Shown: positions 46,699 to 58,880 of the stretch, one piece after another
How positions within the stretch are numbered: position 1 is the stretch's first letter
Layout: every line of letters starts with the position of its first letter
Origin: Nitrospirota bacterium
GTDB lineage: Bacteria > Nitrospirota > UBA9217
Assembly (NCBI GenBank): GCA_963740085.1
Contig: CAVUCU010000001.1
Location: 512,001-576,000 of the forward strand
Reading direction: 5' to 3'
Length of the DNA: 64,000 bases
Notes under the pieces: generated by a model
What the model was told of the DNA's origin: nothing
Database searches by the model: none
Seen by the model: the letters and a program-made list of their open reading frames with translations, nothing else
Made by a program: the position numbers and the translations under genes

Positions 46699-47747
46699 CT
46701 GTCGCCTGGCCTCCTAATCGCAAGCCCCACCGCCACCGCACACAGAGGGGACGACTCCGCTATCACCGTGGATTCAAAGCGCTTCGGGTCGATTTTGATC
46801 TTCTTAAACGGATCGACGACCTCTACCGGTATCTCAAGCCGTTCGGAAAGAACAGTGGTAAAATTCCCTATCCGTGCACACCCTCCGGAGACCAGCACCC
46901 GCGACACTTTGTCACTGCCGGTCGTGGAACGGAAAAATTCGAAGGACCGCTGAGTCTCTGCTACAATATCATCCGTTACCGAAGACATCACCCCGGCAAT
47001 CTGCTCCTTATCAGCGCCTTCCACCTCTTCGCCCCTCTTCACCTTTTCCGCGTCTTCATAGGTAAGACCGAAATCCCGCTGGAGCGCCTCGGTATAACGG
47101 TTGCCACCCACTGTAATATCTCGGGTAAAGATCGATATCCCGTCCTTCAGGATATTGATATTCATCACTGAGGCCCCGATATTGAGAAGGGCCGTTGTTC
47201 CTTCTTCAAAGTCATAGTTGAGCTCGTACATGTTCGCCAGCGCGAAAGCGTCGACGTCCATGACCACCGGCTCCAGTCCCGCCTCTTTGACAAGATTGAC
47301 ATAATCGTTTATCTTGTCCTTTTTTACAGCCACCAGCAGAACGTCTGCCTGCCCCGCGGCAGTGCCCGCTCCGAGCTTTTGAAAGTCGACATTCACGTCA
47401 TCAATGGAAAAGGGGATGTACTGCTCTGCCTCCCATTTGATGGATTCCGCCAACTCTTCATCGGTCATATCGGCAACGGAGACGCGCTTGATAATGACCG
47501 AACTGCCGGAGACCGAGATCACGACCTCCTTGGTCTTTATCTTCTGAGAGGCGAGAAGTTCCTTGATAGCCTCAACAACACGGCCGGCATCCATCACTGC
47601 GCCCTCCACAATCACCTCGGGCGGCAACGGTACCATGCCGAATTTTATCAACTGATAGTTCTTATTCGAACCCTTCAGCTGGACAAGTTTAATAAAGGTT
47701 GATCCTATGTCCAATGCTATCGGCTCAATTTTTTTGGAAAAAAGCAT
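46695..47747 (-). CDS. pilM: Type IV pilus assembly protein PilM
   Basis: LDIGS, EAEQYIPF, VLLVA and AVGLAIR motifs. Confidence 0.95.
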   Translation of the reverse strand: MLFSKKIEPIALDIGSTFIKLVQLKGSNKNYQLIKFGMVPLPPEVIVEGAVMDAGRVVEAIKELLASQKIKTKEVVISVSGSSVIIKRVSVADMTDEELAESIKWEAEQYIPFSIDDVNVDFQKLGAGTAAGQADVLLVAVKKDKINDYVNLVKEAGLEPVVMDVDAFALANMYELNYDFEEGTTALLNIGASVMNINILKDGISIFTRDITVGGNRYTEALQRDFGLTYEDAEKVKRGEEVEGADKEQIAGVMSSVTDDIVAETQRSFEFFRSTTGSDKVSRVLVSGGCARIGNFTTVLSERLEIPVEVVDPFKKIKIDPKRFESTVIAESSPLCAVAVGLAIRRPGDR

Positions 47748-47777
47748 TCGCTCTCCACAAACAGATGATGCGCCCTA

Positions 47778-47978
47778 TCAGCCGGCGCTCTTGCTCTTCA
47801 TGATCTTTTCGATAGCCCGCAGGTTCGTCTCGTTGTAAACCCTCCAGCCCCGCCAGTCACGACCTACACCTGACAGCAGTCCGTCGCTCTCCCATCGGAA
47901 AAGAGTGGCACGAGAAATATCGAACCTGCTGCAGATCTCGCTTGTCTTATACTTTTTCGAGCTTTTGCGTGCGGCCAT
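47778..47978 (-). CDS. Small MerR-type helix-turn-helix protein
   Basis: FDISRATLFRWESDGLL...RDWRGWRVY; GAGG SD before ATG 47978. Confidence 0.82.
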   Translation of the reverse strand: MAARKSSKKYKTSEICSRFDISRATLFRWESDGLLSGVGRDWRGWRVYNETNLRAIEKIMKSKSAG

Positions 47979-48030
47979 GGTATCCTCGCTGATTAGTTCA
48001 CTACGAATAGTTATATTAAGTATAGTTATG

Positions 48031-48058
48031 ATGATACTCAAAAAAACATGCTTGTCAA
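48031..48058 (-). promoter_or_regulatory. Putative promoter of the merR-pilMNOPQ operon
   Basis: TTGACA-16nt-TATCAT. Confidence 0.55.
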
Positions 48059-48160
48059 GTTTTATTTATACTTTTTTTTATGCTCACGACGAGGCACGAG
48101 ATATTGTATCGGGGATAAGGGGAGGATACAAGGTGTGGGACGCTCGGTGGCTAAGCTTTC

Positions 48161-48778
48161 TTACGCCACATAGAAAAAAATGGTTAAATAGTGGCACACG
48201 CTTCCAGCCAGTACAAAGATATGCCATATCCCGTGGCTGTAAGCAAGTTTTTTGTCAAGAGCGTAGAAGACAATCCCAACGGTATAGAACAGTCCTCCGG
48301 TAATCAGCCAGATCATGCCCGCAACCGGAAGTGCGAGGGAAAGCGGGCGAAAAGCCACCATCGCGACCCAGCCCATCAGCAGGTAAATTGCCACAGAGAG
48401 AATGCCCTTGCGTTTCGCAAACAGGAGGTCTTGAAGAATACCGATCACAGCAAGCGCCCAGACCACACCGAATAGGGACCAACCCCAAACGCCTCGCAGG
48501 GTAACAAGAGTAAACGGCGTATAGCTGCCGGCGATGAGCAGGTAAATTGCACTGTGGTCGAATTTTTGAAAAAGCTTCTTCGATGTTCCCCAAATACTGT
48601 GGTAAAGCGTCGATGAGGCATATAACACAACAAGCATTACGCCGAATATACTGACACTGACAATCTTCCAGGGGTCGCCGTCACGCGCTGCCCGAACAAC
48701 CAGCAAAATGAGGCCCGCAAGCGATAGCACGAATCCCACCATATGCGTGATACTATTCAGTCTCTCGCCGCGATGCAT
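48161..48778 (-). CDS. Hemolysin III / PAQR family membrane protein
   Basis: NSITH, SSTLYH, DHSAIYLLIAGSYTPF and HGIWHIFV motifs. Confidence 0.93.
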   Translation of the reverse strand: MHRGERLNSITHMVGFVLSLAGLILLVVRAARDGDPWKIVSVSIFGVMLVVLYASSTLYHSIWGTSKKLFQKFDHSAIYLLIAGSYTPFTLVTLRGVWGWSLFGVVWALAVIGILQDLLFAKRKGILSVAIYLLMGWVAMVAFRPLSLALPVAGMIWLITGGLFYTVGIVFYALDKKLAYSHGIWHIFVLAGSVCHYLTIFFYVA

Positions 48779-48939
48779 GGGTGATCCTCTTGTCCTGATT
48801 GAGCACTACTTTCACCGGCAGATAAACCGGGTTAGAGAACAAGTTCTCTTACGATGAGAGATAGAATGTGCCTTGTTCCGCCGTTTTGGCATATATTAAC
48901 CGCCGATACAGGTCGGCGGATTTCTCCTCTAATGAGGGA

Positions 48940-48968
48940 AAAAAAAGGAGAGGCACCAGGCCTCTCCT
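48940..48968 (-). terminator. Intrinsic terminator after cooS
   Basis: AGGAGAGGC-loop-GCCTCTCCT followed by a T run on the minus strand. Confidence 0.8.
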
Positions 48969-48992
48969 CAAAAAGCGTCCTGATTGTTAACC

Positions 48993-50972
48993 TTATACGT
49001 CCACACCGTGCGGTGTGGCGAAGGTACCGCGCCGTGCCGCCATATCCATAAGTATGCGCTCGGTGCCGAATCTGCCGGATTCATACTTGCGGATTTTGAG
49101 TTTCTCTCTGGCGGTATCGATGAGACTGAGCGCCAGTTCCAGCATCTTGCCCGGATCTTCTTCAAAATAGAAACCTGCAGTCACCATGTCCCACCACTTG
49201 TTTTCCATAATATCCGTGAGCGTCTTGCTTGCCTTGATCGGAGAACCCGCGCCAAAGATGATCGGCACGCCGGAAGCAACGAAGTAAGTCCCGATGGCGA
49301 TGGCCTTCTCGCTCATCCACTCAGGTCCGATGCCGACCGCCGGCAGGCCGCCGATGTCATCGCCAAGACCTCCCTCTTCTGCGATTTTCGACGCAATAGT
49401 CAAAATACGGGAGTTGTCCACACAGGAACCCAAATGCAGCACCGGGGGGATACCAATGGCCTCGCAAACCTCGCGAAGACCAAGGCCTGCATTCTCAAGC
49501 GCCATCTCCGGCGTCATGTAGCCTGCCTTTGCCGAGGCATGCGCCGAGCACCCCGTCTGAACAACGAGTACGTCATTCTTGATTAATTCGCGTGTGAGAA
49601 AATTATGGATACTGTCCTGGCAGATTCTCGGATTATTACATCCCGCAAGACCGACGATACCGCGGATGCGGCCGGCAATAATGGCGTCATTCAGAGGTCG
49701 ATAAGAGCCACGGTACAGTCCGCCCTGCATATACTCAATGTACTCGTCGGAGAACCCGGCTATCATGTCGGCTGATTTGACATTGGCCGGTGAAACGTCT
49801 TCCTTTTTTCGGTTCTGAAAGTTATCGATCGCGAGTCGGGCAACCTTTTTCGCGAGATCCAGTGCGTGATGCTCATCGTATTCAATATGAATGGCATCCT
49901 TCATTTTACCTTTGTTCGTCGTCGTGATGATCTTGGTATGGAACTTTTTTGAAAGTTCGCCGATAGCCGGCATGATACACTGTACATCCACGACCATAGC
50001 CTCAACCATGCCGGTCAGGAGACCAAGCTCCTGCTGAAGAAATCCGCCTGCAGTGGAGATGCCGTGGCGGATCAGGATCTCATTCGCTGTACAGCACATG
50101 CCCACAAGGTTCACGCCTTTGGCGCCCTTGGACTTGGCATAAGCCGAGATCTCGGGATCTTCAACGGCAACAACCAGCATCTCGGCAAACGACGGCTCGT
50201 GGCCGTGGACAACGAGATTCACATAGTCTTCCCTGAATACATTAAGACTCGCCTTGGCCTTGACCGGCCTGGGAGTGCCGAACAGGATGTCGGAGATATC
50301 AGTGCCCATCATTGAACCGCCCCAGCCGTCTGCGAGCGCTGTTCGCATGGCCCCGAGCATGATATTGTTCACTTCCTGATCAACTCCCATGGTAGTCCGG
50401 TGCATCATTTCCACGACTTCACGGTCAATAGCACGAGGAGCGATGCCGAGCTTTTTCCAGATTTCCTGCCTCTTCTTGGGAGCACGCGACAGATAGGCGA
50501 TTTCTCCACGCTGCTGGCCGAACTGATCCAGAAACTTGAGAGCAACCTTCTCGGCCACTTCGTTCACCGACTTGCCTTCCACGTTGATCCCGAGATAACC
50601 GGCAACACGGTTCAGTTTGCGCACGTCCTTGATCTGAAAATCCTTTGCCTCACCCCGCCCAACCGCCAGCAGGGTGTTTGCCAGGTCTCTCGCATGATCC
50701 GAATGCGCCGCAGTGCCTCCGGCCACCATGCGCGCAAAGTTTCTCGCCGTTACTACCGGCAGGGACGCCCCGCAAATACCCATGGCCTCATCTTCCTTGC
50801 CGACCAAACGACAAGGCCCCATATGACACATCTTGCAACAGGCGCCTTGATGTCCGATGGGGCACGGCTTAAGCTTTTCCGCACGCTCGAACGAGGTTTC
50901 TAATTTTTTCAATCCCGCGACCTTCAGCAGGACTTGGGCACCCGGGTCAACTGATTTCTGATCTTCTCTCAT
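48993..50972 (-). CDS. cooS: Anaerobic Ni,Fe carbon-monoxide dehydrogenase catalytic subunit
   Basis: D/B-cluster C-x7-CCxxCxxxxC..C; C-cluster ligands in GHEP, GMCC, DVQC, GCNN, TGC and GSCVD; AHSDH and SEKA catalytic motifs. Confidence 0.96.
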   Translation of the reverse strand: MREDQKSVDPGAQVLLKVAGLKKLETSFERAEKLKPCPIGHQGACCKMCHMGPCRLVGKEDEAMGICGASLPVVTARNFARMVAGGTAAHSDHARDLANTLLAVGRGEAKDFQIKDVRKLNRVAGYLGINVEGKSVNEVAEKVALKFLDQFGQQRGEIAYLSRAPKKRQEIWKKLGIAPRAIDREVVEMMHRTTMGVDQEVNNIMLGAMRTALADGWGGSMMGTDISDILFGTPRPVKAKASLNVFREDYVNLVVHGHEPSFAEMLVVAVEDPEISAYAKSKGAKGVNLVGMCCTANEILIRHGISTAGGFLQQELGLLTGMVEAMVVDVQCIMPAIGELSKKFHTKIITTTNKGKMKDAIHIEYDEHHALDLAKKVARLAIDNFQNRKKEDVSPANVKSADMIAGFSDEYIEYMQGGLYRGSYRPLNDAIIAGRIRGIVGLAGCNNPRICQDSIHNFLTRELIKNDVLVVQTGCSAHASAKAGYMTPEMALENAGLGLREVCEAIGIPPVLHLGSCVDNSRILTIASKIAEEGGLGDDIGGLPAVGIGPEWMSEKAIAIGTYFVASGVPIIFGAGSPIKASKTLTDIMENKWWDMVTAGFYFEEDPGKMLELALSLIDTAREKLKIRKYESGRFGTERILMDMAARRGTFATPHGVDV

Positions 50973-51115
50973 GATGTTTTAAAACTCCTTTCCTAAAGGA
51001 GACTAAGCATCCCCTGTTTAAGCCTGTGCATTATACAAAACACCGAATAATAAAACTATAACAAGTTGCAACCGTAACTTAATAGAGGCAGATCGTCCTA
51101 GGACCAAACCGCTGC

Positions 51116-53278
51116 CTATCCCCGGAGTACCGGTTGCTTGACCGCTATCACCTTGGACACGCCGGAACCTGTAAGCAAGCCCTGGTTCATGGCCATGATA
51201 AGCACGGAAGCGTACAGGGCGTTCGGTTTCGAGGCCTTTGCAGCCACCGGTCTGAAAGACCCGGTTCCGATCTTCGCTGCCTTCACCTTTTTGACTGCAG
51301 CAGTGATATCTTTTCCCTTAAAGGCCTTTGTCTTGCTCATTGCCGCCGAGATATCGGCCGCGATCTCCAAGCCATCCTTTGCCTCTCCGGCAGGATGCTG
51401 CACCGGAGCAACGGTCTTAACCGCGCCGTAGGTATTCATAACGGTCCCCTGCCTCTCATAGAGGGCAGCCATGGGAAGCACCAGGTCCGCCTTTTCTGCA
51501 AACGGCGTCATATGACTTGCCTGCACGATTATCATGTTGGATTTGAAATCAGCATCTCCCACGTTGCCGGCAACGAACAGCGCTTTCATGCCGGACCTCA
51601 TTTCAGCATAGCCCTTGCCCGCCTTTTTCACCTTGACAGCGCCTGGACCAAGATCAGGTACGCAACCCATCTGCATCGCTCCCAGGGCGTTCGCCTCAAG
51701 CATGAGCGGCAGCACCCCCGCATTGGTCATGAGCGCAAGGTTCAAGGCCTGGAACGAAGCGTCTTCATTCGTCGAAATGCCGGTACCGATAATGACGAGC
51801 GCCTGTTTTGCCGCGGCAAGCGCCTTTCCGGCGTTTGCAAGCTGCTCAGCCGAAACGCCTGACGTGGATGCGGCGGTGTCAATGCTTACGAGCGATTTTT
51901 TCAGGGCATCAAACCCCTTTGCAGAAGAAGTTGCACCCTCAGCGATCGCAGCACTCATGAGGCCCGCGAGAAGGACCGTGTCGGTCCCTTCTTTGAGCTG
52001 TAGATGAATGGCATTCTGATGGCCCGCGAGCTCGATCTTCTCCGGGTTCACCACTATGACCTTTGCGCCAGCCTGGGCCCTTCTCCTGATCATAACCTCC
52101 ACTTCCTGGAGGGATTGTTTCTTCTGCGACGGGTCGGCGCCGATCACCACGATCACGTCGGCGGATCTGAGATCGGCCCGTGATGCGATGGTGATACCCG
52201 CATCGCCATAGACCGAACGGAGAGCAGAGATCAGGCCGCCCGCATACGCGGACGCCGGCGTATCGACATTCGGGCTTCCCGCCACATCTCGGGCAAGCTT
52301 CTGAACAGCATATGCCTCCTCGTTCGTGAGCGAACCGGCGGCGATGAACCCCGCATTGACTCCTGCCTTCTTGAAGGCGTCAGCCGCGAGCTTTGCTGCA
52401 TCTTCCCAGGTGGTGGGCACGAGTTTTCCGCCCTGTTTCTTCATGGGTGTCATGATACGATTAGCCGTTTTTAACGAATCAAACCCGAAACGGCCGATCA
52501 CACAAATGTAGCCGTTGTCCTCTTTCGCGTTCACCTTCACAATCTTACCGTCCTTGCTGCTCGTGACAACGCTGCAACCCGAGCCGCAGGCGGTGCAGAC
52601 CGTTTCCTGTTTTTTAAGGTCCCATTCCCTGCCGTGCTGCCAACGGTCGCGTTCCATGATCGCATTGACCGGGCATGCGTCAACGCAAGACCCGCAGAAC
52701 GTGCAGCCCGAATCCTGGAGCGGTTTGTCCATCGCCGTGGTTACTTTGGTGGCGATGCCGCGGCCCATAAAGTCGAGCACGTTCGTGTTCTGCTCCTTGC
52801 AGACCCGTACACACCGGCCGCACAGGATGCAGTAGTTGTTGTCAATGGTGATGAAAGGGCTCCGGTCGTTGAGCTCGTAGTTGAAGCTCTTCCTGCCGAA
52901 AGACGATTCCTGAATTTTCAGGTCCGCGGCATACCGCTGCAGATCGCAGGCGCCGGCCTTGGGGCAGGTCATGCAATCCAAGGGGTGGAAGGACAGGACC
53001 AGGTCGGTCACAAATTTTCTGATCTCCTCGACCTTGGGGGTGCTGGTCTGGACCTTCATCCCTTCCTTGGTCCGGGTGGTGCAACCGGTAACCGGCGTCT
53101 TCATGCCCTCGATCTCCACCATGCACATGCGGCATGCGCCCACCCCTCTGAGTTCCTTGATATGGCACAGGTTCGGGATGTGGATCCCAACGGTCGCCGC
53201 TGCGTCCACAAGGGTCATGCCCTCGGGAACAGAAACGGCCTTGCCGTCAAATTCCATGTTCAACATCTTGGTCGTCAT
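51116..53278 (-). CDS. NuoG/FdhA-like multi-Fe-S subunit (HydA/BfuA-like, probably cofactor-less molybdopterin fold)
   Basis: 2Fe-2S, HxxxCxxCxxxxxC, two CxxCxxCxxxC and CxxCxxGC..C motifs, then a molybdopterin-oxidoreductase-like body with no Cys/Sec at the usual Mo-ligand position. Confidence 0.85.
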   Translation of the reverse strand: MTTKMLNMEFDGKAVSVPEGMTLVDAAATVGIHIPNLCHIKELRGVGACRMCMVEIEGMKTPVTGCTTRTKEGMKVQTSTPKVEEIRKFVTDLVLSFHPLDCMTCPKAGACDLQRYAADLKIQESSFGRKSFNYELNDRSPFITIDNNYCILCGRCVRVCKEQNTNVLDFMGRGIATKVTTAMDKPLQDSGCTFCGSCVDACPVNAIMERDRWQHGREWDLKKQETVCTACGSGCSVVTSSKDGKIVKVNAKEDNGYICVIGRFGFDSLKTANRIMTPMKKQGGKLVPTTWEDAAKLAADAFKKAGVNAGFIAAGSLTNEEAYAVQKLARDVAGSPNVDTPASAYAGGLISALRSVYGDAGITIASRADLRSADVIVVIGADPSQKKQSLQEVEVMIRRRAQAGAKVIVVNPEKIELAGHQNAIHLQLKEGTDTVLLAGLMSAAIAEGATSSAKGFDALKKSLVSIDTAASTSGVSAEQLANAGKALAAAKQALVIIGTGISTNEDASFQALNLALMTNAGVLPLMLEANALGAMQMGCVPDLGPGAVKVKKAGKGYAEMRSGMKALFVAGNVGDADFKSNMIIVQASHMTPFAEKADLVLPMAALYERQGTVMNTYGAVKTVAPVQHPAGEAKDGLEIAADISAAMSKTKAFKGKDITAAVKKVKAAKIGTGSFRPVAAKASKPNALYASVLIMAMNQGLLTGSGVSKVIAVKQPVLRG

Positions 53279-53436
53279 AGCATCCTCCAGAATATCGCTT
53301 CGTAAAATTTTCAGAAAAAGATCCAGAATGGGGCAGCTGAATTATGTTCTCTCTCAATCACTGTCTAAGTGATTCCTGGTTACACAGGGGTACGCATGAT
53401 GATGCTCACCAGACGTTACGCTCTATCTTACAATCC

Positions 53437-54132
53437 TTATTTCCTGCCCGCGATGGACTCTTCGGCGGGCATGGTCTTGTGGATCACGCAGGACGGGTCG
53501 CCACCGAGGGCGTTTGCTCGGACGTCGCAGGTGCAGACCAGCGTCCGAACCGGAGGCTTAGTGACCGCCTCGCGGTTAATCGTCTCGCGATCTTGTTCGA
53601 TGATCACAACTGCCTTCTCGGGACAGACCTTGATACATTCGCCGCAGTGGGTGCACCGCTGTTGCCGGATGCGGAAAGGGGTGAACCCTCCCTTATACGG
53701 CTGCAGCTTCTGACCCTCGATCGCGTTGTCCTTGCAGACCTCGCGGCATTTGTCACACATGGTGCACAGCGCAGCATTGATCTCATACCGGACGAGCGGT
53801 TTGCACTCATGATAGGTGCAGACACCTTTGATATGCCTATCGAGGTCGCCGGCGCTGTTGGCAAGAAAAGCCGCCAGGATATCGGCATGGTCCTTGCCTT
53901 TCTTGCACATGCCGCCGTCCTTCACCTCAATGGCAATACGTTTGAGCAGGGCAGCGTCCTTTTCCCTGCCTTTTCCGGCCTGGATCGCTTCGAGGATCTT
54001 GATAGCATCGAAGATGCCAAGCTTGCAGGGATGGCACTTGGAGCACATGCCGTCCTTGGAGTCGTCATTATAGAAGAACGTCAGTTTCCGCCGCGTGGCA
54101 TTGACCGGACACTTATTTTCTTGTTGCGACAT
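53437..54132 (-). CDS. Fe-S protein resembling a stand-alone NuoF/HydB C-terminal module
   Basis: CSKCHPC..C, H..C..C and two 4Fe-4S ferredoxin motifs; GGAGG SD before ATG 54132; overlaps the end of the NuoF-like gene. Confidence 0.82.
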   Translation of the reverse strand: MSQQENKCPVNATRRKLTFFYNDDSKDGMCSKCHPCKLGIFDAIKILEAIQAGKGREKDAALLKRIAIEVKDGGMCKKGKDHADILAAFLANSAGDLDRHIKGVCTYHECKPLVRYEINAALCTMCDKCREVCKDNAIEGQKLQPYKGGFTPFRIRQQRCTHCGECIKVCPEKAVVIIEQDRETINREAVTKPPVRTLVCTCDVRANALGGDPSCVIHKTMPAEESIAGRK

Positions 54133-56011
54133 GGTCCCTCCTCTTCTCGATCGTGATGGCCTGAGTGGGACAGACACTGTAGCAGGCCTTGCACCGGGTG
54201 CAGTAGTCCTGATCGATAAAGAACTTGTCCCGAAGCTCCACTACCGCATCAAAGGCGCAGGCCTGTTTGCAGAGACCACAGAGAATGCAATGCTCGGGCA
54301 ATATCCTGTATGCCCCCAATCCCTGGCAACGTCTGGCCCGGCAGTACTTGTCGTGCACATGCTCTTCGTATTCTTCGCGGAAATACTTGATCGTCGAGAG
54401 CACCGGGTTCGGAGCGCTGTTCCCGAGACCGCAGAGCGACCCGGCAACGACCATCTTGCCCATCTTCTCAAGCCGCTCGATGTCGCCTTGCTCCCCGTAT
54501 CCCGTGGTGATTTTGTCCAGGAGTTCATACATCTGCCAGGTTCCGACACGGCAGGGCGGACACTTGCCGCAGGATTCGCTCTTGGTAAAGGACAGGAAAA
54601 ACTTGGCCACGTCCACCATACAGTCGTCATCGTCCAGCACCACCATCCCGCCGGAGCCCATGATGGAGCCCACCGTCGCAAGGGTGTCGAAGTCCACCTG
54701 CATGTCAAGGAATTTGGCCGGGATGCAGCCGCCCGAGGGTCCGCCGGTCTGGACCGCCTTGAATTGTCTTTCCGGGTTCAGCATGCCGCCGCCGATATCG
54801 AAGATAATCTCCCGGAGTGTGATGCCCATGGGAACTTCGATAAGGCCCGTGTTCTTGATCTTACCGGTAAGGGCGAAAACCTTGGTCCCTTTTGATTTCT
54901 CGGTCCCGATCTTTGTATAGTAATCGAGTCCCTTGGTAATGATCGTGGGAACATTTGCAAAGGTCTCAACGTTGTTCAGATTCGTAGGCATGTTCCAGAG
55001 GCCGCCGGCGGATTCGGAGAGACGTGGAGGACGGGGACGCGGCATGCCGCGCTCGCCCTCAAGGGACGCGACCAGCGCAGTGGACTCACCGCAGACAAAT
55101 GCTCCCGCGCCTTCTTTGATCTCAATGTCAAACTCGAGTCCGGAGCCAAGGATGTTCTTGCCCAGGAGGCCCATACCCCTGGCCTGGGTAATGGCAACGC
55201 CGAGGTTTTTCACCGCAAGAGGATATTCATGCCGCACGTAGATAAAGCCGTGTTGCGCACCGATCGCATACGCGTTGATAAGCATGCCCTCAAGAACGGA
55301 ATGAGGGTCACCTTCCATGAGGGAGCGGTCCATGAACGCGCCGGGGTCGCCTTCGTCGCCGTTACATACCACTGCCTTGATCCTCGCGCCGGATTTTTTC
55401 GTATGCTCCCACTTGAGGCCTGCCGGGAAACCTGCTCCCCCGCGGCCGCGAAGACCGGACTTCTTCACGATGTCGATGACGTCATCGGGCTTCATCTCGG
55501 TCAGCGCCTTGGCGAGGCCGGTATACCCGTCCTCTCGGATGGCGTCATAAATATTGCAGGGATCGACAACCCCGTTCCGATGGAGCGCCACGCGCTTCTG
55601 CTTCTTGTAAAAGGGAATATCACTCACCTTCTCGTTCGGATCGGACAAGGGGAACTCGCGGTAGAGCTTCTTGCGATAGGATACACCGTGGAGCACGGAA
55701 TCAGAGAAGAGCGTCGGGACGTCAGCTACCTTCACCTTCTGGTAAAAGATCTCCTGTGGGTCCTGGATCACCACCGGACCGCGCTGGCAGAACCCCTGGC
55801 ACCCTGTCTTGACAATCTCGAGCTTTTCCCCCTTCTGGGCCGCCTCCTTCTCGAATTGATCAATAAGTTTCAAGGATCCCGTGGCCTGGCACGCGGTACC
55901 GCAACAGATACGCACCCGGTGGGCATCACTCTCCGCGTGCTCCTTTTGGAGCTTCAGGCGCAAGGCATCGAGGTCTTTAACATTTTCCAGCCGCTTAAAC
56001 GTGAGTTCCAT
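54113..56011 (-). CDS. NuoF/HydB-like NAD(H)/FMN-binding subunit (long, bifurcating type)
   Basis: N-terminal 2Fe-2S domain; GLRGRGGAGF, DEGDPGAFMD, GAGAFVCGE, GGPSGGC and ESCGKCPPCR motifs; C-terminal 2x4Fe-4S. Confidence 0.92.
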   Translation of the reverse strand: MELTFKRLENVKDLDALRLKLQKEHAESDAHRVRICCGTACQATGSLKLIDQFEKEAAQKGEKLEIVKTGCQGFCQRGPVVIQDPQEIFYQKVKVADVPTLFSDSVLHGVSYRKKLYREFPLSDPNEKVSDIPFYKKQKRVALHRNGVVDPCNIYDAIREDGYTGLAKALTEMKPDDVIDIVKKSGLRGRGGAGFPAGLKWEHTKKSGARIKAVVCNGDEGDPGAFMDRSLMEGDPHSVLEGMLINAYAIGAQHGFIYVRHEYPLAVKNLGVAITQARGMGLLGKNILGSGLEFDIEIKEGAGAFVCGESTALVASLEGERGMPRPRPPRLSESAGGLWNMPTNLNNVETFANVPTIITKGLDYYTKIGTEKSKGTKVFALTGKIKNTGLIEVPMGITLREIIFDIGGGMLNPERQFKAVQTGGPSGGCIPAKFLDMQVDFDTLATVGSIMGSGGMVVLDDDDCMVDVAKFFLSFTKSESCGKCPPCRVGTWQMYELLDKITTGYGEQGDIERLEKMGKMVVAGSLCGLGNSAPNPVLSTIKYFREEYEEHVHDKYCRARRCQGLGAYRILPEHCILCGLCKQACAFDAVVELRDKFFIDQDYCTRCKACYSVCPTQAITIEKRRDHVATRK

Positions 56012-56483
56012 GTTCGCTCCTCACCGTATTGATTATTTCTTCTACCATCCTGGGCGTCAGTTCGCCGAACAGGTCCTTGTCGTTGATCGTGGTAACGGGC
56101 GCCAGTGCGCAACACCCCACGCACCCCACGGTCTCGAGCGTAACGGACAGGTCCTTGGTTGTCTCGCCTTCCTTGATCCCGAGCTTATGCTCCATTTCCG
56201 TGAGCACGGCCTTTGCGCCACGCACGTGGCAGGCAGTACCCATGCAGACCTTGACGATGTTCTTACCGCGGGGCTTGAAATGGAAATGCTTGTAGAACGA
56301 TGCAACGCCGTAAACATTGTTCAGTGACAGGGACATCCGCTCGGCGATCATGGCCATAGCCTCTTCCGGCAGATAACCGATCTTCTCCTGGACACGCTGG
56401 AATACGGCGATAAGAATGCCCCGCTGACCAGCGGTATCATTAAGGACGGCATCAACCTTATTTATGTCTTCTTGTTGGAGCAC
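55995..56483 (-). CDS. NuoE/HydC-like 2Fe-2S subunit
   Basis: GVASFY, CMGTACHVRG and GCVGCCALAP motifs; GTG start after GGAGG. Confidence 0.92.
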   Translation of the reverse strand: MLQQEDINKVDAVLNDTAGQRGILIAVFQRVQEKIGYLPEEAMAMIAERMSLSLNNVYGVASFYKHFHFKPRGKNIVKVCMGTACHVRGAKAVLTEMEHKLGIKEGETTKDLSVTLETVGCVGCCALAPVTTINDKDLFGELTPRMVEEIINTVRSEHGTHV

Positions 56484-56636
56484 GATAAGAACCTCCCTCG
56501 TGAAATTGCGAACAGAACAACCGGAGCAGCAGGTTTGCCTGCTGATTTTTCAAGGTCTTGCTGATTAATATAGCACCGCGGTTGTTTTTCGTGATCATGA
56601 ATCGAAAGGTAAAAAAGGATTATGTATAAGGTTTGT

Positions 56637-56665
56637 ATATTAGCAAGCGCGGGGTAAAAAATCAA
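56637..56665 (-). promoter_or_regulatory. Putative promoter of the NuoEFG-like operon
   Basis: TTGATT-17nt-TAATAT with an extended -10 TG. Confidence 0.5.
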
Positions 56666-56812
56666 GAGAAAACATTATAAAATAAAGATCATTAACGTCT
56701 ATAATGCAAAGTTCGAATCCGTTTAACCGGGAATTTTCGAAATAATGAGGGTGCGGTAATCCCTTCAAAACGCACAAGGCATTTTCATCTTCAACATCAA
56801 TAGGTTCCCAAT

Positions 56813-56841
56813 TTGACACGTATGCAATGACCTGCTATCAT
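56813..56841 (+). promoter_or_regulatory. Putative promoter of glgC
   Basis: TTGACA-17nt-TATCAT. Confidence 0.6.
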
Positions 56842-56881
56842 ATTAATTATTAAACGATTGCGTAGAGAATGGTAGCAAATT

Positions 56882-58135
56882 ATGAGCATTCTGGCAATGA
56901 TCCTTGCCGGCGGCAAGGGAGAACGGCTCCATCCCCTCACCATCCACCGAGCGAAGCCTGCGGTCCCCTTTGGCGGCATTTACCGTATCATCGACTTCTC
57001 CCTCTCGAACTGCATCAATTCCAGCATCCGAAAGATCGCTGTGCTGCCCCAATATAAGTCCCTGTCTTTGGACAAACACCTGCGGCTCGCCTGGAACCTT
57101 TTTTCCGGGGAATTGAACGAATACATCATCTCCGTACCACCCCAGCAGCGCGTAGGAGACAAGTGGTATCAGGGAACCGCCGATGCCATCTACCAGAACA
57201 TCTATATGATCGAAAAAGACGCGCCGGACCATGTTCTCGTGCTTGCAGGAGACCACATCTATAAAATGGACTACGCCGAAATGTTCCGGTTCCATAAAGA
57301 GAACACGGCCGATGCAACCGTGGCGGCCATCGAAACGCCACGGACAAATGCCACCGCCTTTGGCATCGTCGAGGTGGACCGTAGAAGCAGGATCGTCGGA
57401 TTCGAGGAAAAACCCAAAGAACCCAGACCCATCCCTGGCCGGCCCGGCATAGCCTTCGCGTCCATGGGCATCTACCTGTTCAACACTAAAACCTTGCTGG
57501 AATATCTGAAGTCCGACGCGCTCCAAGACACTGCCCACGACTTCGGCAAGAACATCATTCCCCAGATGATGAAGACCGCACGTGTCTGCGCCTATAATTT
57601 CAAGGATGAGAATAAAAAAGAAGCAAAGTACTGGCGCGATGTAGGAACGATCGACGCCTACTGGGAGGCCAACATGGACCTGGTACGCGTTGACCCGCTC
57701 CTCAACCTCTACGACAAGGCATGGCCCATCCGAACCTATCAGGCGCAGAATCCGCCGGCCAAGTTCGTGTTCGCCCAGGAGAAAAAAGGAGGCCGGCTCG
57801 GCATCGCACTTGACTCTATCGTGGCTCACGGCTGTATCGTGAGCGGCGGCCGGGTGCAGAATTCCGTGCTATCGCCGAACGTCCGTGTGAACAGTTACAG
57901 TGAAGTGCGTGACTCAATTCTCATGGAGAACGTCGATATCGGACGGCACAGTCGCATCCGGCGCGCCATCATTGACAAGGACGTCGTGATACCTCCGAAG
58001 ACCGAGATCGGGTATAACCTTGAGAATGACAAGAAGCGCTACCACGTAACGCCTTCGGGTATAGTAGTGATCGCGAAAGGAACAGAAGTGTCGGAGAAAA
58101 AAAGGGCAGCGGCTATAACGGAAGAGAGGGCATAA
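56882..58135 (+). CDS. glgC: Glucose-1-phosphate adenylyltransferase
   Basis: LAGGKGERL, RAKPAVPFGG, WYQGTADA, FEEKP and YWRDVGT motifs. Confidence 0.97.
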   Translation: MSILAMILAGGKGERLHPLTIHRAKPAVPFGGIYRIIDFSLSNCINSSIRKIAVLPQYKSLSLDKHLRLAWNLFSGELNEYIISVPPQQRVGDKWYQGTADAIYQNIYMIEKDAPDHVLVLAGDHIYKMDYAEMFRFHKENTADATVAAIETPRTNATAFGIVEVDRRSRIVGFEEKPKEPRPIPGRPGIAFASMGIYLFNTKTLLEYLKSDALQDTAHDFGKNIIPQMMKTARVCAYNFKDENKKEAKYWRDVGTIDAYWEANMDLVRVDPLLNLYDKAWPIRTYQAQNPPAKFVFAQEKKGGRLGIALDSIVAHGCIVSGGRVQNSVLSPNVRVNSYSEVRDSILMENVDIGRHSRIRRAIIDKDVVIPPKTEIGYNLENDKKRYHVTPSGIVVIAKGTEVSEKKRAAAITEERA

Positions 58136-58247
58136 GCCATGCTGCGCCGATTTCTTTTTTGATCCTCATCATTCCTGAGAAAACAGAACCCGGCCTTTTC
58201 ATAAAGCTCCAGGTCCCAATCAATTCCGGCTTCAACGCGGAACAGGT

Positions 58248-58880
58248 CTATTTATCATCCCACTTCGTCGGCATGAAAATATTTCGCAGCTTGAGCCACC
58301 GGCGCTCGCTGTCCGTCAACAGCTCGGGTCCGAAGATTTTCTTCATTTTAATGAGCGACAGGCGATCGGCGAGCCCAAGCAGCCCGGTGAAGAATCGACC
58401 GATCAGGGGGATGCTTCCCGAATGAAGAGCCGAGGCCAGGTCCACCACGAATATGTTCCCGTCGACGAACAGAATATTCGTCCTGCGATGCAGATCAAGA
58501 TGCACCCAGCCGCGCTTATGCAGCTCATCAACGATACGCTCGAATTGGCGTATGACCTCAGGCCCGAACTCGCCCCGCTGAAAACAACCGAGGTCCTTAC
58601 CCTCGAGATACTCGACGGCAAGGGAATAGCGCGAGAGCCGCTTGAACTGCTGCGGCAGCCCCTCGACGCCGCTCAGCGCTTCGTAGGCCCTGGCCTCCCT
58701 TCCGATAACGATGAGACCGACGAGATTCCGTTCCCAGAACCCTTTTTGCGAATAATCCTTCACCACGAACCGGCGCCCTTCGGAGCGCGTGATGAAAATA
58801 TCTGCCTTGGTGAACCGGCCCCTGATCAGGACCTTCTCGAGATTCGCGATCGCTTCGTCGTATGTCAGGCCGGGCTGCAT
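58248..58880 (-). CDS. RIO/Kdo-like kinase-fold protein
   Basis: VVKDY, REARAY, HLDLHRRTNIL and VDL motifs. Confidence 0.75.
   Translation of the reverse strand: MQPGLTYDEAIANLEKVLIRGRFTKADIFITRSEGRRFVVKDYSQKGFWERNLVGLIVIGREARAYEALSGVEGLPQQFKRLSRYSLAVEYLEGKDLGCFQRGEFGPEVIRQFERIVDELHKRGWVHLDLHRRTNILFVDGNIFVVDLASALHSGSIPLIGRFFTGLLGLADRLSLIKMKKIFGPELLTDSERRWLKLRNIFMPTKWDDK

Follow-up and report, generated by a model that had tools for sequence, protein, structure and literature searches.

An operon that joins a probable CODH/ACS-type carbon monoxide dehydrogenase gene to a predicted BfuABC-type NAD(H)/ferredoxin module in a Nitrospirota bacterium

With what does a carbon monoxide dehydrogenase (CODH) work when its gene stands beside NuoE/F/G-like genes and away from those for acetyl-CoA synthase (ACS)? 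The question is raised by a five-gene operon of an uncultured, dsrAB-bearing Nitrospirota bacterium (genome of 3.46 Mb in seven contigs, 98.5% complete). The operon occupies the minus strand at 48993-56483 of a 64-kb window, the whole stretch of DNA analyzed, which corresponds to positions 512001-576000 of contig C1; coordinates without a contig name are those of the window. An initial annotation had proposed a soluble complex that couples CO/CO2 interconversion to NAD(H) and ferredoxin and is encoded apart from ACS. At a probability of roughly 0.65, we read the operon as encoding the CODH subunit (AcsA) of the Wood-Ljungdahl CODH/ACS together with a dedicated four-subunit BfuABC-type NAD(H)/ferredoxin module; this module probably links CO2/CO conversion to both NADH and ferredoxin.

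Five co-oriented open reading frames (ORFs) follow one another in the order NuoE-like, NuoF-like, X, NuoG-like, and CooS, and an intrinsic-terminator-like hairpin with a T-run (48969-48945, minus strand; 10 pairs, 6 of them G-C) closes the operon 24 nt past the cooS stop codon. ORF calls, family matches, ligand mapping, and this hairpin all bear out the layout given in the initial annotation, with cooS last, complete in its B-, C-, and D-cluster ligands, and followed by a terminator. The annotation was also right that the locus lacks acsB, cooC, and cooF: no match to acsB or to a cooC-like or cooF-like gene lies within the 64-kb window.

The cooS gene (48993-50972) encodes the 659-aa Ni,Fe-CODH catalytic subunit, which passes the TIGR01702 cutoff (594.2 bits; cutoff, 478). 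We numbered its ligands as in Carboxydothermus hydrogenoformans CODH-II by mapping them through the genome's second, CODH-II-like CooS, a paralogue that aligns to CODH-II without net indels (1029 bits; residues 29-657 versus 6-634). The locus CooS matches CODH-II one-to-one at C39, C47, C48, C51, C56, C70, H261, C295, C333, C446, C476, C526, and K563, and these ligand residues, whose assignment to individual clusters is our assumption, are invariant in 57/57 aligned CooS sequences. By sequence, the protein is a complete Ni-CODH with all B-, C-, and D-cluster ligands. Its closest solved relatives are the CODH chains of CODH/ACS complexes (6YTT_B, 595 bits; 9FZY_B, 594 bits).

The bfuC gene (55995-56483) encodes a 162-aa NuoE-like protein (PF01257, 166 bits) with [2Fe-2S] cluster C1, whose ligands C80, C85, C121, and C125 are kept in 53/53 aligned rows, and bfuB (54113-56011) encodes a 632-aa NuoF/HydB-like flavoprotein (PF01512, 156.1 bits; PF10589, 112.6 bits). 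BfuB comprises an N-terminal thioredoxin-like domain with [2Fe-2S] cluster B5 (a PF01257 piece at residues 29-101), a flavin mononucleotide (FMN)/NAD(H) domain, an SLBB domain (26.9 bits, just below the cutoff of 27; E value, 4.4e-6), [4Fe-4S] cluster B1, the Cys3His site B2, and a C-terminal 2x[4Fe-4S] domain with B3 and B4 (Fer4 domains at 570-620; Fer4, 39.6 bits). The extra N- and C-terminal domains that the initial annotation ascribed to this protein are thus in place, as are the motifs it named: AFM (225-227), GAGAF (301-305), GGPSGGC (423-429), and CMV (464-466) with H551, C557, and C562. Despite ~40% sequence divergence, the ligands C36/C41/C71/C75, C464/H551/C557/C562, C575-C585, and C604-C614 are kept in 47/47 orthologues (C464 in 46/47).

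Among solved structures, BfuB is closest to 7T2R_B, the HydB of the bifurcating hydrogenase NiFe-HydABCSL (726 bits, aligned over residues 32-619), followed by HydB of Thermoanaerobacter kivui (697 bits) and Acetobacterium woodii (694 bits), 9MQX_B (693 bits), the Stn chain 8OH5_B (675 bits), NfnB 9N5U_B (661 bits), and HydB of Thermotoga maritima (633 bits), compared with 398 bits for FdsB and ~350 bits for NuoF. The minimal bifurcation site is B1-FMN-C1, and the nonbifurcating homologues NuoF, FdsB, and HoxF lack sites B2-B5 (Li et al. 2025, PMC11829005, cited throughout from the accessible part of the paper); all of B2-B5 are fully conserved here. In the accessible part of Schut et al. (2022, PMC9304861), from which we cite throughout, a BfuABC core is defined by a BfuB with Nuo51 FMN, SLBB, NuoF 4Fe-4S, and ferredoxin-type 4Fe-4S domains, a BfuC with a NuoE-type domain, and a BfuA with at least 2Fe-2S and 4Fe-4S ferredoxin-type domains. 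The locus BfuA, BfuB, and BfuC each carry the domains so defined. For this comparison, we matched InterPro to Pfam accessions that we presume to be equivalent. With the ligands of B1-B5, C1, and A1-A5 all present and conserved, the redox module is, by sequence, of the Bfu (HydABC) type, in agreement with the initial annotation.

The NuoG-like protein encoded by bfuA (51116-53278; 720 aa) contains Fer2_4 (71.7 bits), NADH-G_4Fe-4S_3, two Fer4 (Fer4_7), Molybdop_Fe4S4, and Molybdopterin domains, and ligand sets for five clusters, A1-A5, are present in 49-50/50 orthologues. A Pfam search found no PF01568 domain in it, and the protein stops short of the C-terminal domain of the genome's FdhA. Its Tyr345-Ala346 aligns opposite Sec347-His348 of the genome's own selenocysteine FdhA, and Tyr345 is kept in 50/50 orthologues. 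Because Tyr replaces Sec/Cys in every one of these rows and PF01568 is missing, BfuA, whose formate-dehydrogenase-like domain has no active site, cannot be the catalytic subunit; CooS is the only catalytic protein of the cluster. BfuA aligns end to end with the 692-residue 7T2R_A (5-635 to 3-650), and its AlphaFold2 model (predicted local distance difference test score, 82) has FdsA, NuoG, and 7T30_A/7T2R_A as Foldseek neighbors (TMt, 0.60 to 0.63).

These comparisons bear on whether the module bifurcates at all. It might instead serve a plain NAD+-reducing CODH, with electrons passing from CooS through X and BfuA to FMN and NAD+ much as in FdsABG, and the extra clusters a side branch or relic. 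BfuA is about equally close to FdsA (6TG9_A, 265 bits) and to HydA of NiFe-HydABCSL (225 bits), and CO is a stronger reductant than NADH and ferredoxin, so coupling is not thermodynamically required. We nevertheless think this improbable: the B2-B5 ligands are kept in 46-47/47 orthologues, whereas nonbifurcating homologues lack them (PMC11829005), and BfuB is far nearer to HydB, StnB, and NfnB (633-726 bits) than to FdsB or NuoF.

The fifth protein, X, is an Fe-S protein for which the ORF as called (53437-54177, 246 aa) starts upstream of the ATG at 54132 that its orthologues share; with that start, the gene spans 53437-54132 and encodes 231 aa, with a PF10589-like match (42 bits) and a Fer4_7 2x[4Fe-4S] domain. 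By homology, X corresponds to the C-terminal third of BfuB, with a four-helix bundle, a B1-like [4Fe-4S] site, a B2-like Cys3His site, and 2x[4Fe-4S] but no flavin or NAD domains. Among solved structures, its nearest matches are to C-terminal segments of StnB/HydB chains (8OH5_B, 415-582; 7Q4V_B, 429-593). All 16 ligand columns are invariant in 50/50 sequences, at a mean column identity of 36%.

Do the four redox genes belong with cooS? The initial annotation had proposed the conservation of gene order as a check, and the four genes do stay with cooS among relatives. A CooS-seeded scan of one genome per species, with neighbors classified by tblastn, gave 80 loci that fall into a close clade (39 loci; CooS identity, 76-96%) and a distant clade (41 loci; 58-66%); every tblastn match lies on the CooS strand. 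In the close clade, the four genes (E-F-X-G) are directly upstream of cooS in 28 loci and partial up to a contig end in 8; another locus, with 200 nt of upstream sequence, is untestable, and two (L027 and L037) have no E-F-X-G. In the distant clade, all four lie downstream of cooS in 23/41 loci; 8 more are partial at contig ends, and 10 have none, 4 of them despite flanks of at least 8 kb (L065, L067, L070, and L083) and 6 with <4 kb downstream. The scan thus finds two gene orders, E-F-X-G-CooS (here and in the close clade) and CooS-E-F-X-G, and linkage survives the change. A set of X-seeded metagenome contigs tells the same story, with CooS present in 39/80 loci and the other 41 all ending short of its expected place. 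Linkage of four redox genes to CooS in two orders is hard to explain without shared function.

This conservation weighs most directly on the idea that the operon merely brings together unrelated neighbors, CooS working with free ferredoxin and the E-F-X-G proteins having a different partner, such as respiratory complex I, for which they might be a spare NADH-input module. Adjoining genes are not always partners, and the best NCBIfam names of three of these proteins are indeed NuoE, NuoF, and NuoG. Yet the NuoF and NuoG matches fall below equivalog level (470.1 bits against a cutoff of 558.65, and 351.5 against 470.05), with NuoE NF005722 a marginal pass (144.7 bits; cutoff, 141). The CooS linkage is kept in both gene orders and at every testable X-seeded locus, and the module has no catalytic site of its own. 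We regard such a chance association as very unlikely, and a role for E-F-X-G as a complex I N-module was rejected, both nuo operons of the genome carrying their own E, F, and G genes.

A further gene pair recurs beside CooS in the relatives: NfnAB-like genes (Fer4_20 plus Pyr_redox_2, DHODB_Fe-S_bind) occur at L063, L064, L069, L056, L081, L027, L037, L013, L028, L029, and L036, in some distant loci on the opposite strand between cooS and nuoE and in several close loci upstream, including L027 and L037. Locus L018, on a contig labeled Betaproteobacteria, has the full E-F-X-G-CooS set with 88% CooS identity; the label probably reflects a binning or labeling issue rather than transfer. Labels in the distant clade are mostly Thermodesulfovibrionia or Nitrospirota, and also include Desulfonatronospira, Ignavibacteriales, Rokubacteria, and Chloroflexi.

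With which enzyme does this CooS act? In the source genome, acsB is on contig C5, and no close-clade locus (0/39) has acsB near cooS. In the distant clade, by contrast, acsB lies directly upstream of the orthologous cooS on the same strand in 36/41 loci, with a median gap of 101 nt; 4 of the remaining 5 have ≤191 nt of upstream sequence at contig ends, so that only L086 truly lacks it. By Pfam, loci L064 and L077 read acsE-acsD-acsC-acsB-cooS-nuoE-nuoF-X-nuoG, and in L053 a CbiA-family (CooC-like) gene stands ahead of acsE. The search for acsB to acsE and cooC called for by the initial annotation places all of them on contig C5, cooC only as a CooC-like gene, in the order thyX, CooC-like ATPase, one unrelated gene, acsE, acsD, acsC, acsB, two NuoE/NuoF/FdhA-type sets, and fhs. 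The ATPase has CooC 3KJE_A as its best solved match (68 bits), and AcsB (NF040764, 1030.8 bits) retains the N-terminal CODH-contact domain (PF18537, 86.8 bits). No CODH gene lies in this acs cluster. Because the thyX-cooC-acsE order also precedes acsB-cooS in L053, the two acs clusters appear to be orthologous and the segment of cooS plus module to have moved.

Apart from the locus CooS, the genome offers this AcsB, with its CODH-contact domain, no plausible CODH partner. Its only two other Prismane-family genes are the CODH-II-like cooS of a CooS-CooF-FNOR set and, on contig C4, a gene that was rejected as the ACS partner, being a hydroxylamine reductase/Hcp (815 bits). In all five related genomes searched, acsB is also away from cooS, and no CODH besides the nuo-linked CooS was found in three of the five (G001, G003, and G005). 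These findings point to the locus CooS being the AcsA orthologue, not an ACS-independent enzyme.

That conclusion divides the claim of the initial annotation that the complex is encoded apart from ACS. Physical separation holds, here and in 39/39 close loci; independence from ACS is not supported, given the orthologue directly after acsB in 36/41 loci, an acs cluster without a CODH, and a sole CODH in 3/5 relatives. The annotation had named as evidence against itself a CooS that partners with an AcsB encoded elsewhere and does not associate with the NuoEFG-like proteins; comparative evidence indicates the first half of this and not the second.

The same evidence bears on a stand-alone soluble electron-bifurcating CODH (Codh-Bfu) that would oxidize environmental CO for energy or detoxification with no ACS partnership. 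In its favor, the operon and the acs genes are apart here and throughout the close clade, the operon has a terminator and promoter-like sites of its own, and dsrAB in the genome would in principle allow CO to feed sulfate/sulfite reduction; such enzymes have been proposed (Schut et al. 2022, PMC9304861). Set against these points are the position of the orthologues within the acs operon in most distant loci, the acs cluster of this genome without a CODH of its own, the sole-CODH relatives, and the separate CooS-CooF-FNOR set of monofunctional type that this genome already has. We give a purely stand-alone role a small chance, although CO oxidation of this kind and ACS partnership are not mutually exclusive.

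Phylogenies of CooS and HydB (BfuB), also proposed with the initial annotation, agree with partnership with ACS. They were quick IQ-TREE searches (74 CooS rows and 52 BfuB rows) with support from the Shimodaira-Hasegawa-like approximate likelihood ratio test (SH-aLRT) only. In the CooS tree, the clade of the locus and the acs-linked clade (each with 35 rows and an SH-aLRT value of 100) fall together, both far from the genome's second CooS. In the BfuB tree, one clade (SH-aLRT, 98) takes in all CODH-linked BfuB sequences and leaves out the three further paralogues of Bfu type in the genome (Fdh-linked and Nuo-linked). Because the locus type (25 rows; SH-aLRT, 100) is nested within the acs-linked forms, the tree suggests that the detached arrangement, with cooS and module away from acsB, is derived, the rooting being tentative. 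Between nuoE and X at L077 (11727-15782), BfuB is encoded by two tandem genes (631 and 693 aa), of which the second joins the tree at the base of the clade of CODH-linked sequences.

If the operon does encode AcsA with its own Bfu module, we would expect the contig C5-encoded AcsB to dock on the locus CooS and the E-F-X-G proteins to form a soluble module on CooS. Electrons would pass from the C-cluster through the B- and D-clusters of CooS to the three [4Fe-4S] clusters of X, and from there through the A-clusters of the catalytically dead BfuA to the B1-FMN-C1 site of BfuB/BfuC. Electron exchange with NAD(H) would take place at FMN and that with ferredoxin at B3/B4, the C-terminal clusters of BfuB, giving overall 2 CO + NAD+ + 2 Fd(ox) <-> 2 CO2 + NADH + 2 Fd(red). 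By analogy with NiFe-HydABCSL, dead BfuA would be a docking and wire subunit, with X bridging to the D- and B-clusters of the CODH; a complex prediction for CooS with X gave no answer (score, 0.00; mark, 0.32) and is evidence neither way. Should the enzyme run toward CO2 fixation, part of the reducing power for which CODH/ACS otherwise relies wholly on ferredoxin would come from NADH. As a rough sign that the five proteins are soluble, their maximum Kyte-Doolittle hydropathy over 19-residue stretches is 1.77, versus 2.41 in the neighboring HlyIII protein.

Several points weigh against this reading. The standard potentials of CO2/CO (-520 mV), NAD (~-280 mV), and ferredoxin (~-500 mV) (Schut et al. 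2022, Table 1, PMC9304861) make CO oxidation downhill to both acceptors, so that it needs no bifurcation, and by our own calculation CO2 reduction by NADH plus ferredoxin is uphill by ~130 mV unless CO is several orders of magnitude below standard. Hundreds of kilobases or a contig separate the operon from acsB in this lineage; it has promoter-like sites and a terminator of its own and could serve free CO oxidation. At L027, L037, L065, L067, L070, and L083, the latter four with long flanks, CooS has no module nearby, so the module is not obligatory. The relatives' loci come mostly from one phylum and are not independent events, and the trees, besides being quick searches with SH-aLRT support only, have long outgroup branches.

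On the energetic point, tunneling of CO into AcsB might keep CO low enough for CO2 reduction. A more specific form of the favored reading, an operon for AcsA plus Bfu module, would make the whole a supercomplex of CODH/ACS that incorporates a confurcating Bfu module and in which NADH and reduced ferredoxin jointly drive CO2-to-CO reduction and X, a duplicated BfuB C-terminal module, is a ferredoxin-like adaptor at the D-cluster. We offer this tentatively, at odds well short of even.

How does the locus compare with systems already known? Its closest solved counterpart is NiFe-HydABCSL of Acetomicrobium mobile (PDB 7T2R/7T30), a "Type 3" Bfu enzyme in the accessible text of Schut et al. (2022), where 7T2R_B is stated to lie in clade 49 of a 1558-sequence BfuB tree (PMC9304861). 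As in that enzyme, whose BfuA has ~690 aa and a cofactor-less molybdopterin-like domain, catalysis is delegated to separate subunits. The catalytic partner here is a Ni-CODH rather than [NiFe]-hydrogenase large and small subunits, however, and both the tie to ACS and the extra subunit X, for which no counterpart is named in the accessible text, are differences.

Codh-Bfu itself was predicted from four sequences, Firmicutes only, in which bfuB and bfuA enclose the CODH genes, BfuB belongs to clade 49 of the 1558-sequence tree, and BfuA is of "Type 2", without A3 and A5 (Schut et al. 2022, PMC9304861); in the accessible part of Feng et al. (2025, PMC12318220), the same enzyme is named CodhABCSF, has CooF (a WorS homologue) as its wire, and has never been purified. 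The locus shares with it a CooS encoded with a BfuABC core and the proposed coupling of CO/CO2 to NAD(H) and ferredoxin, but it is from Nitrospirota, its BfuA has A1-A5, and its CooS is the orthologue of an ACS-operon enzyme. Furthermore, cooS lies outside the bfu genes, after bfuA; X, not CODH genes, stands between bfuB and bfuA; and, unlike in Codh-Bfu, the cluster contains no CooF-like (Fer4_11) gene, X taking the place of CooF. In architecture, the locus looks nearer to the Type 3 NiFe enzyme than to the Firmicutes Codh-Bfu.

Like bacteria with a characterized CODH/ACS (Clostridium autoethanogenum 6YTT; 9FZY), this genome encodes AcsB, AcsC, AcsD, AcsE, and a CooC-like ATPase. The redox partner of bacterial bifunctional CODH/ACS is taken to be ferredoxin. 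Unlike here, the solved complexes have no flavin module, and acsA is here unlinked from acsB. FdsABG (6TG9) resembles the locus in joining a NuoE/F/G-like module to a CO2-reducing or C1-oxidizing site, and BfuA finds its top match, in sequence and in fold, in FdsA; FdsA carries a Mo site and FdsB lacks B2-B5 (PMC11829005), the reverse of the locus, which has lost the Mo site and kept B2-B5.

The neighborhood of CODH and NuoEFG genes has been seen in print, but without a functional proposal. In the accessible parts of these papers, NuoE/F/G-type COGs are assigned by Inoue et al. (2019, PMC6344411) to the Wood-Ljungdahl group of gene contexts for CODHs of clades A, E, and F, and a nuoEF set lies near CODH/ACS genes in one metagenome-assembled genome (Suzuki et al. 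2018, PMC6305446). The main text of a paper on CODH context (eLife 2026, PMC13056359) makes no mention of bifurcation, Nuo, NADH, HydB, or Bfu, and we found no published description of a Bfu-type module attached to CODH/ACS in a search that left most subscription journals outside.

Within the operon, bfuC and bfuB overlap by 17 nt and bfuB and X by 20 nt, and the remaining two gaps are 158 and 143 nt. The upstream intergenic region (56484-56842, minus strand) contains two sigma-70-like hexamer pairs, TAGACG/TATAAT (56701-56674) and TTGCTA/CATAAT (56646-56619), which are consensus matches only, and a GGGAGG ribosome-binding site precedes the GTG start of bfuC. No Rfam family matched at an E value of ≤1 in window positions 47500-58500, and no inverted repeats were found in the three intergenic stretches, the upstream one included. 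Housekeeping genes flank the operon: upstream, a glgC-like gene on the other strand; downstream, the HlyIII gene and pilMNOPQ, with ilv/leu and leuS farther off. The HlyIII-family membrane protein gene (48161-48778), past the terminator, keeps its position after cooS in many close relatives (e.g., L008-L016) and has no obvious link to the operon.

Elsewhere in the genome, the two tandem NuoE/NuoF/FdhA-type sets after the acs cluster (contig C5, 404000-431000) have CBS and cNMP-binding genes between them and fhs next to them, and one FdhA has an in-frame TGA (Sec347); from its gene content, formate dehydrogenase, too, looks Bfu-linked in this genome. A second complex I operon (contig C1, 974000-988000) includes a 597-aa NuoF with a C-terminal 2x[4Fe-4S] domain that is 53% identical to the locus BfuB and adjoins a 726-aa NuoG-like gene and nuoH; it is predicted to be of the "Nuo-Bfu" kind, which is listed for Nitrospirae and Planctomycetes (Schut et al. 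2022, PMC9304861). In the canonical operon for complex I (contig C1, 757000-776500), a PD-(D/E)XK nuclease-family gene (126 aa) is inserted between nuoF and nuoG. The second CODH, in the CooS-CooF-FNOR set (contig C1, 988000-1006000), is 40% identical to the locus CooS and may have been acquired horizontally.

The Codh-Bfu idea has already been published, which limits the value of the proposal made here. If it is true, a CODH/ACS-linked member would be added to the Bfu family, with an architecture unlike that of the only CODH member in print, and the five genes plus acsB are a defined set open to coexpression and assay. Were the supercomplex real, the ferredoxin cost of the carbonyl branch would be halved, with CO kept low by tunneling into AcsB, and Bfu-type enzymes, counting the Fdh-Bfu encoded beside acsB, would serve both steps of the pathway that reduce CO2. 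The energy cost of the Wood-Ljungdahl pathway is usually reckoned with ferredoxin as the sole electron partner of CODH/ACS; if the module also links NAD(H), that accounting would change for widespread subsurface and soil anaerobes.

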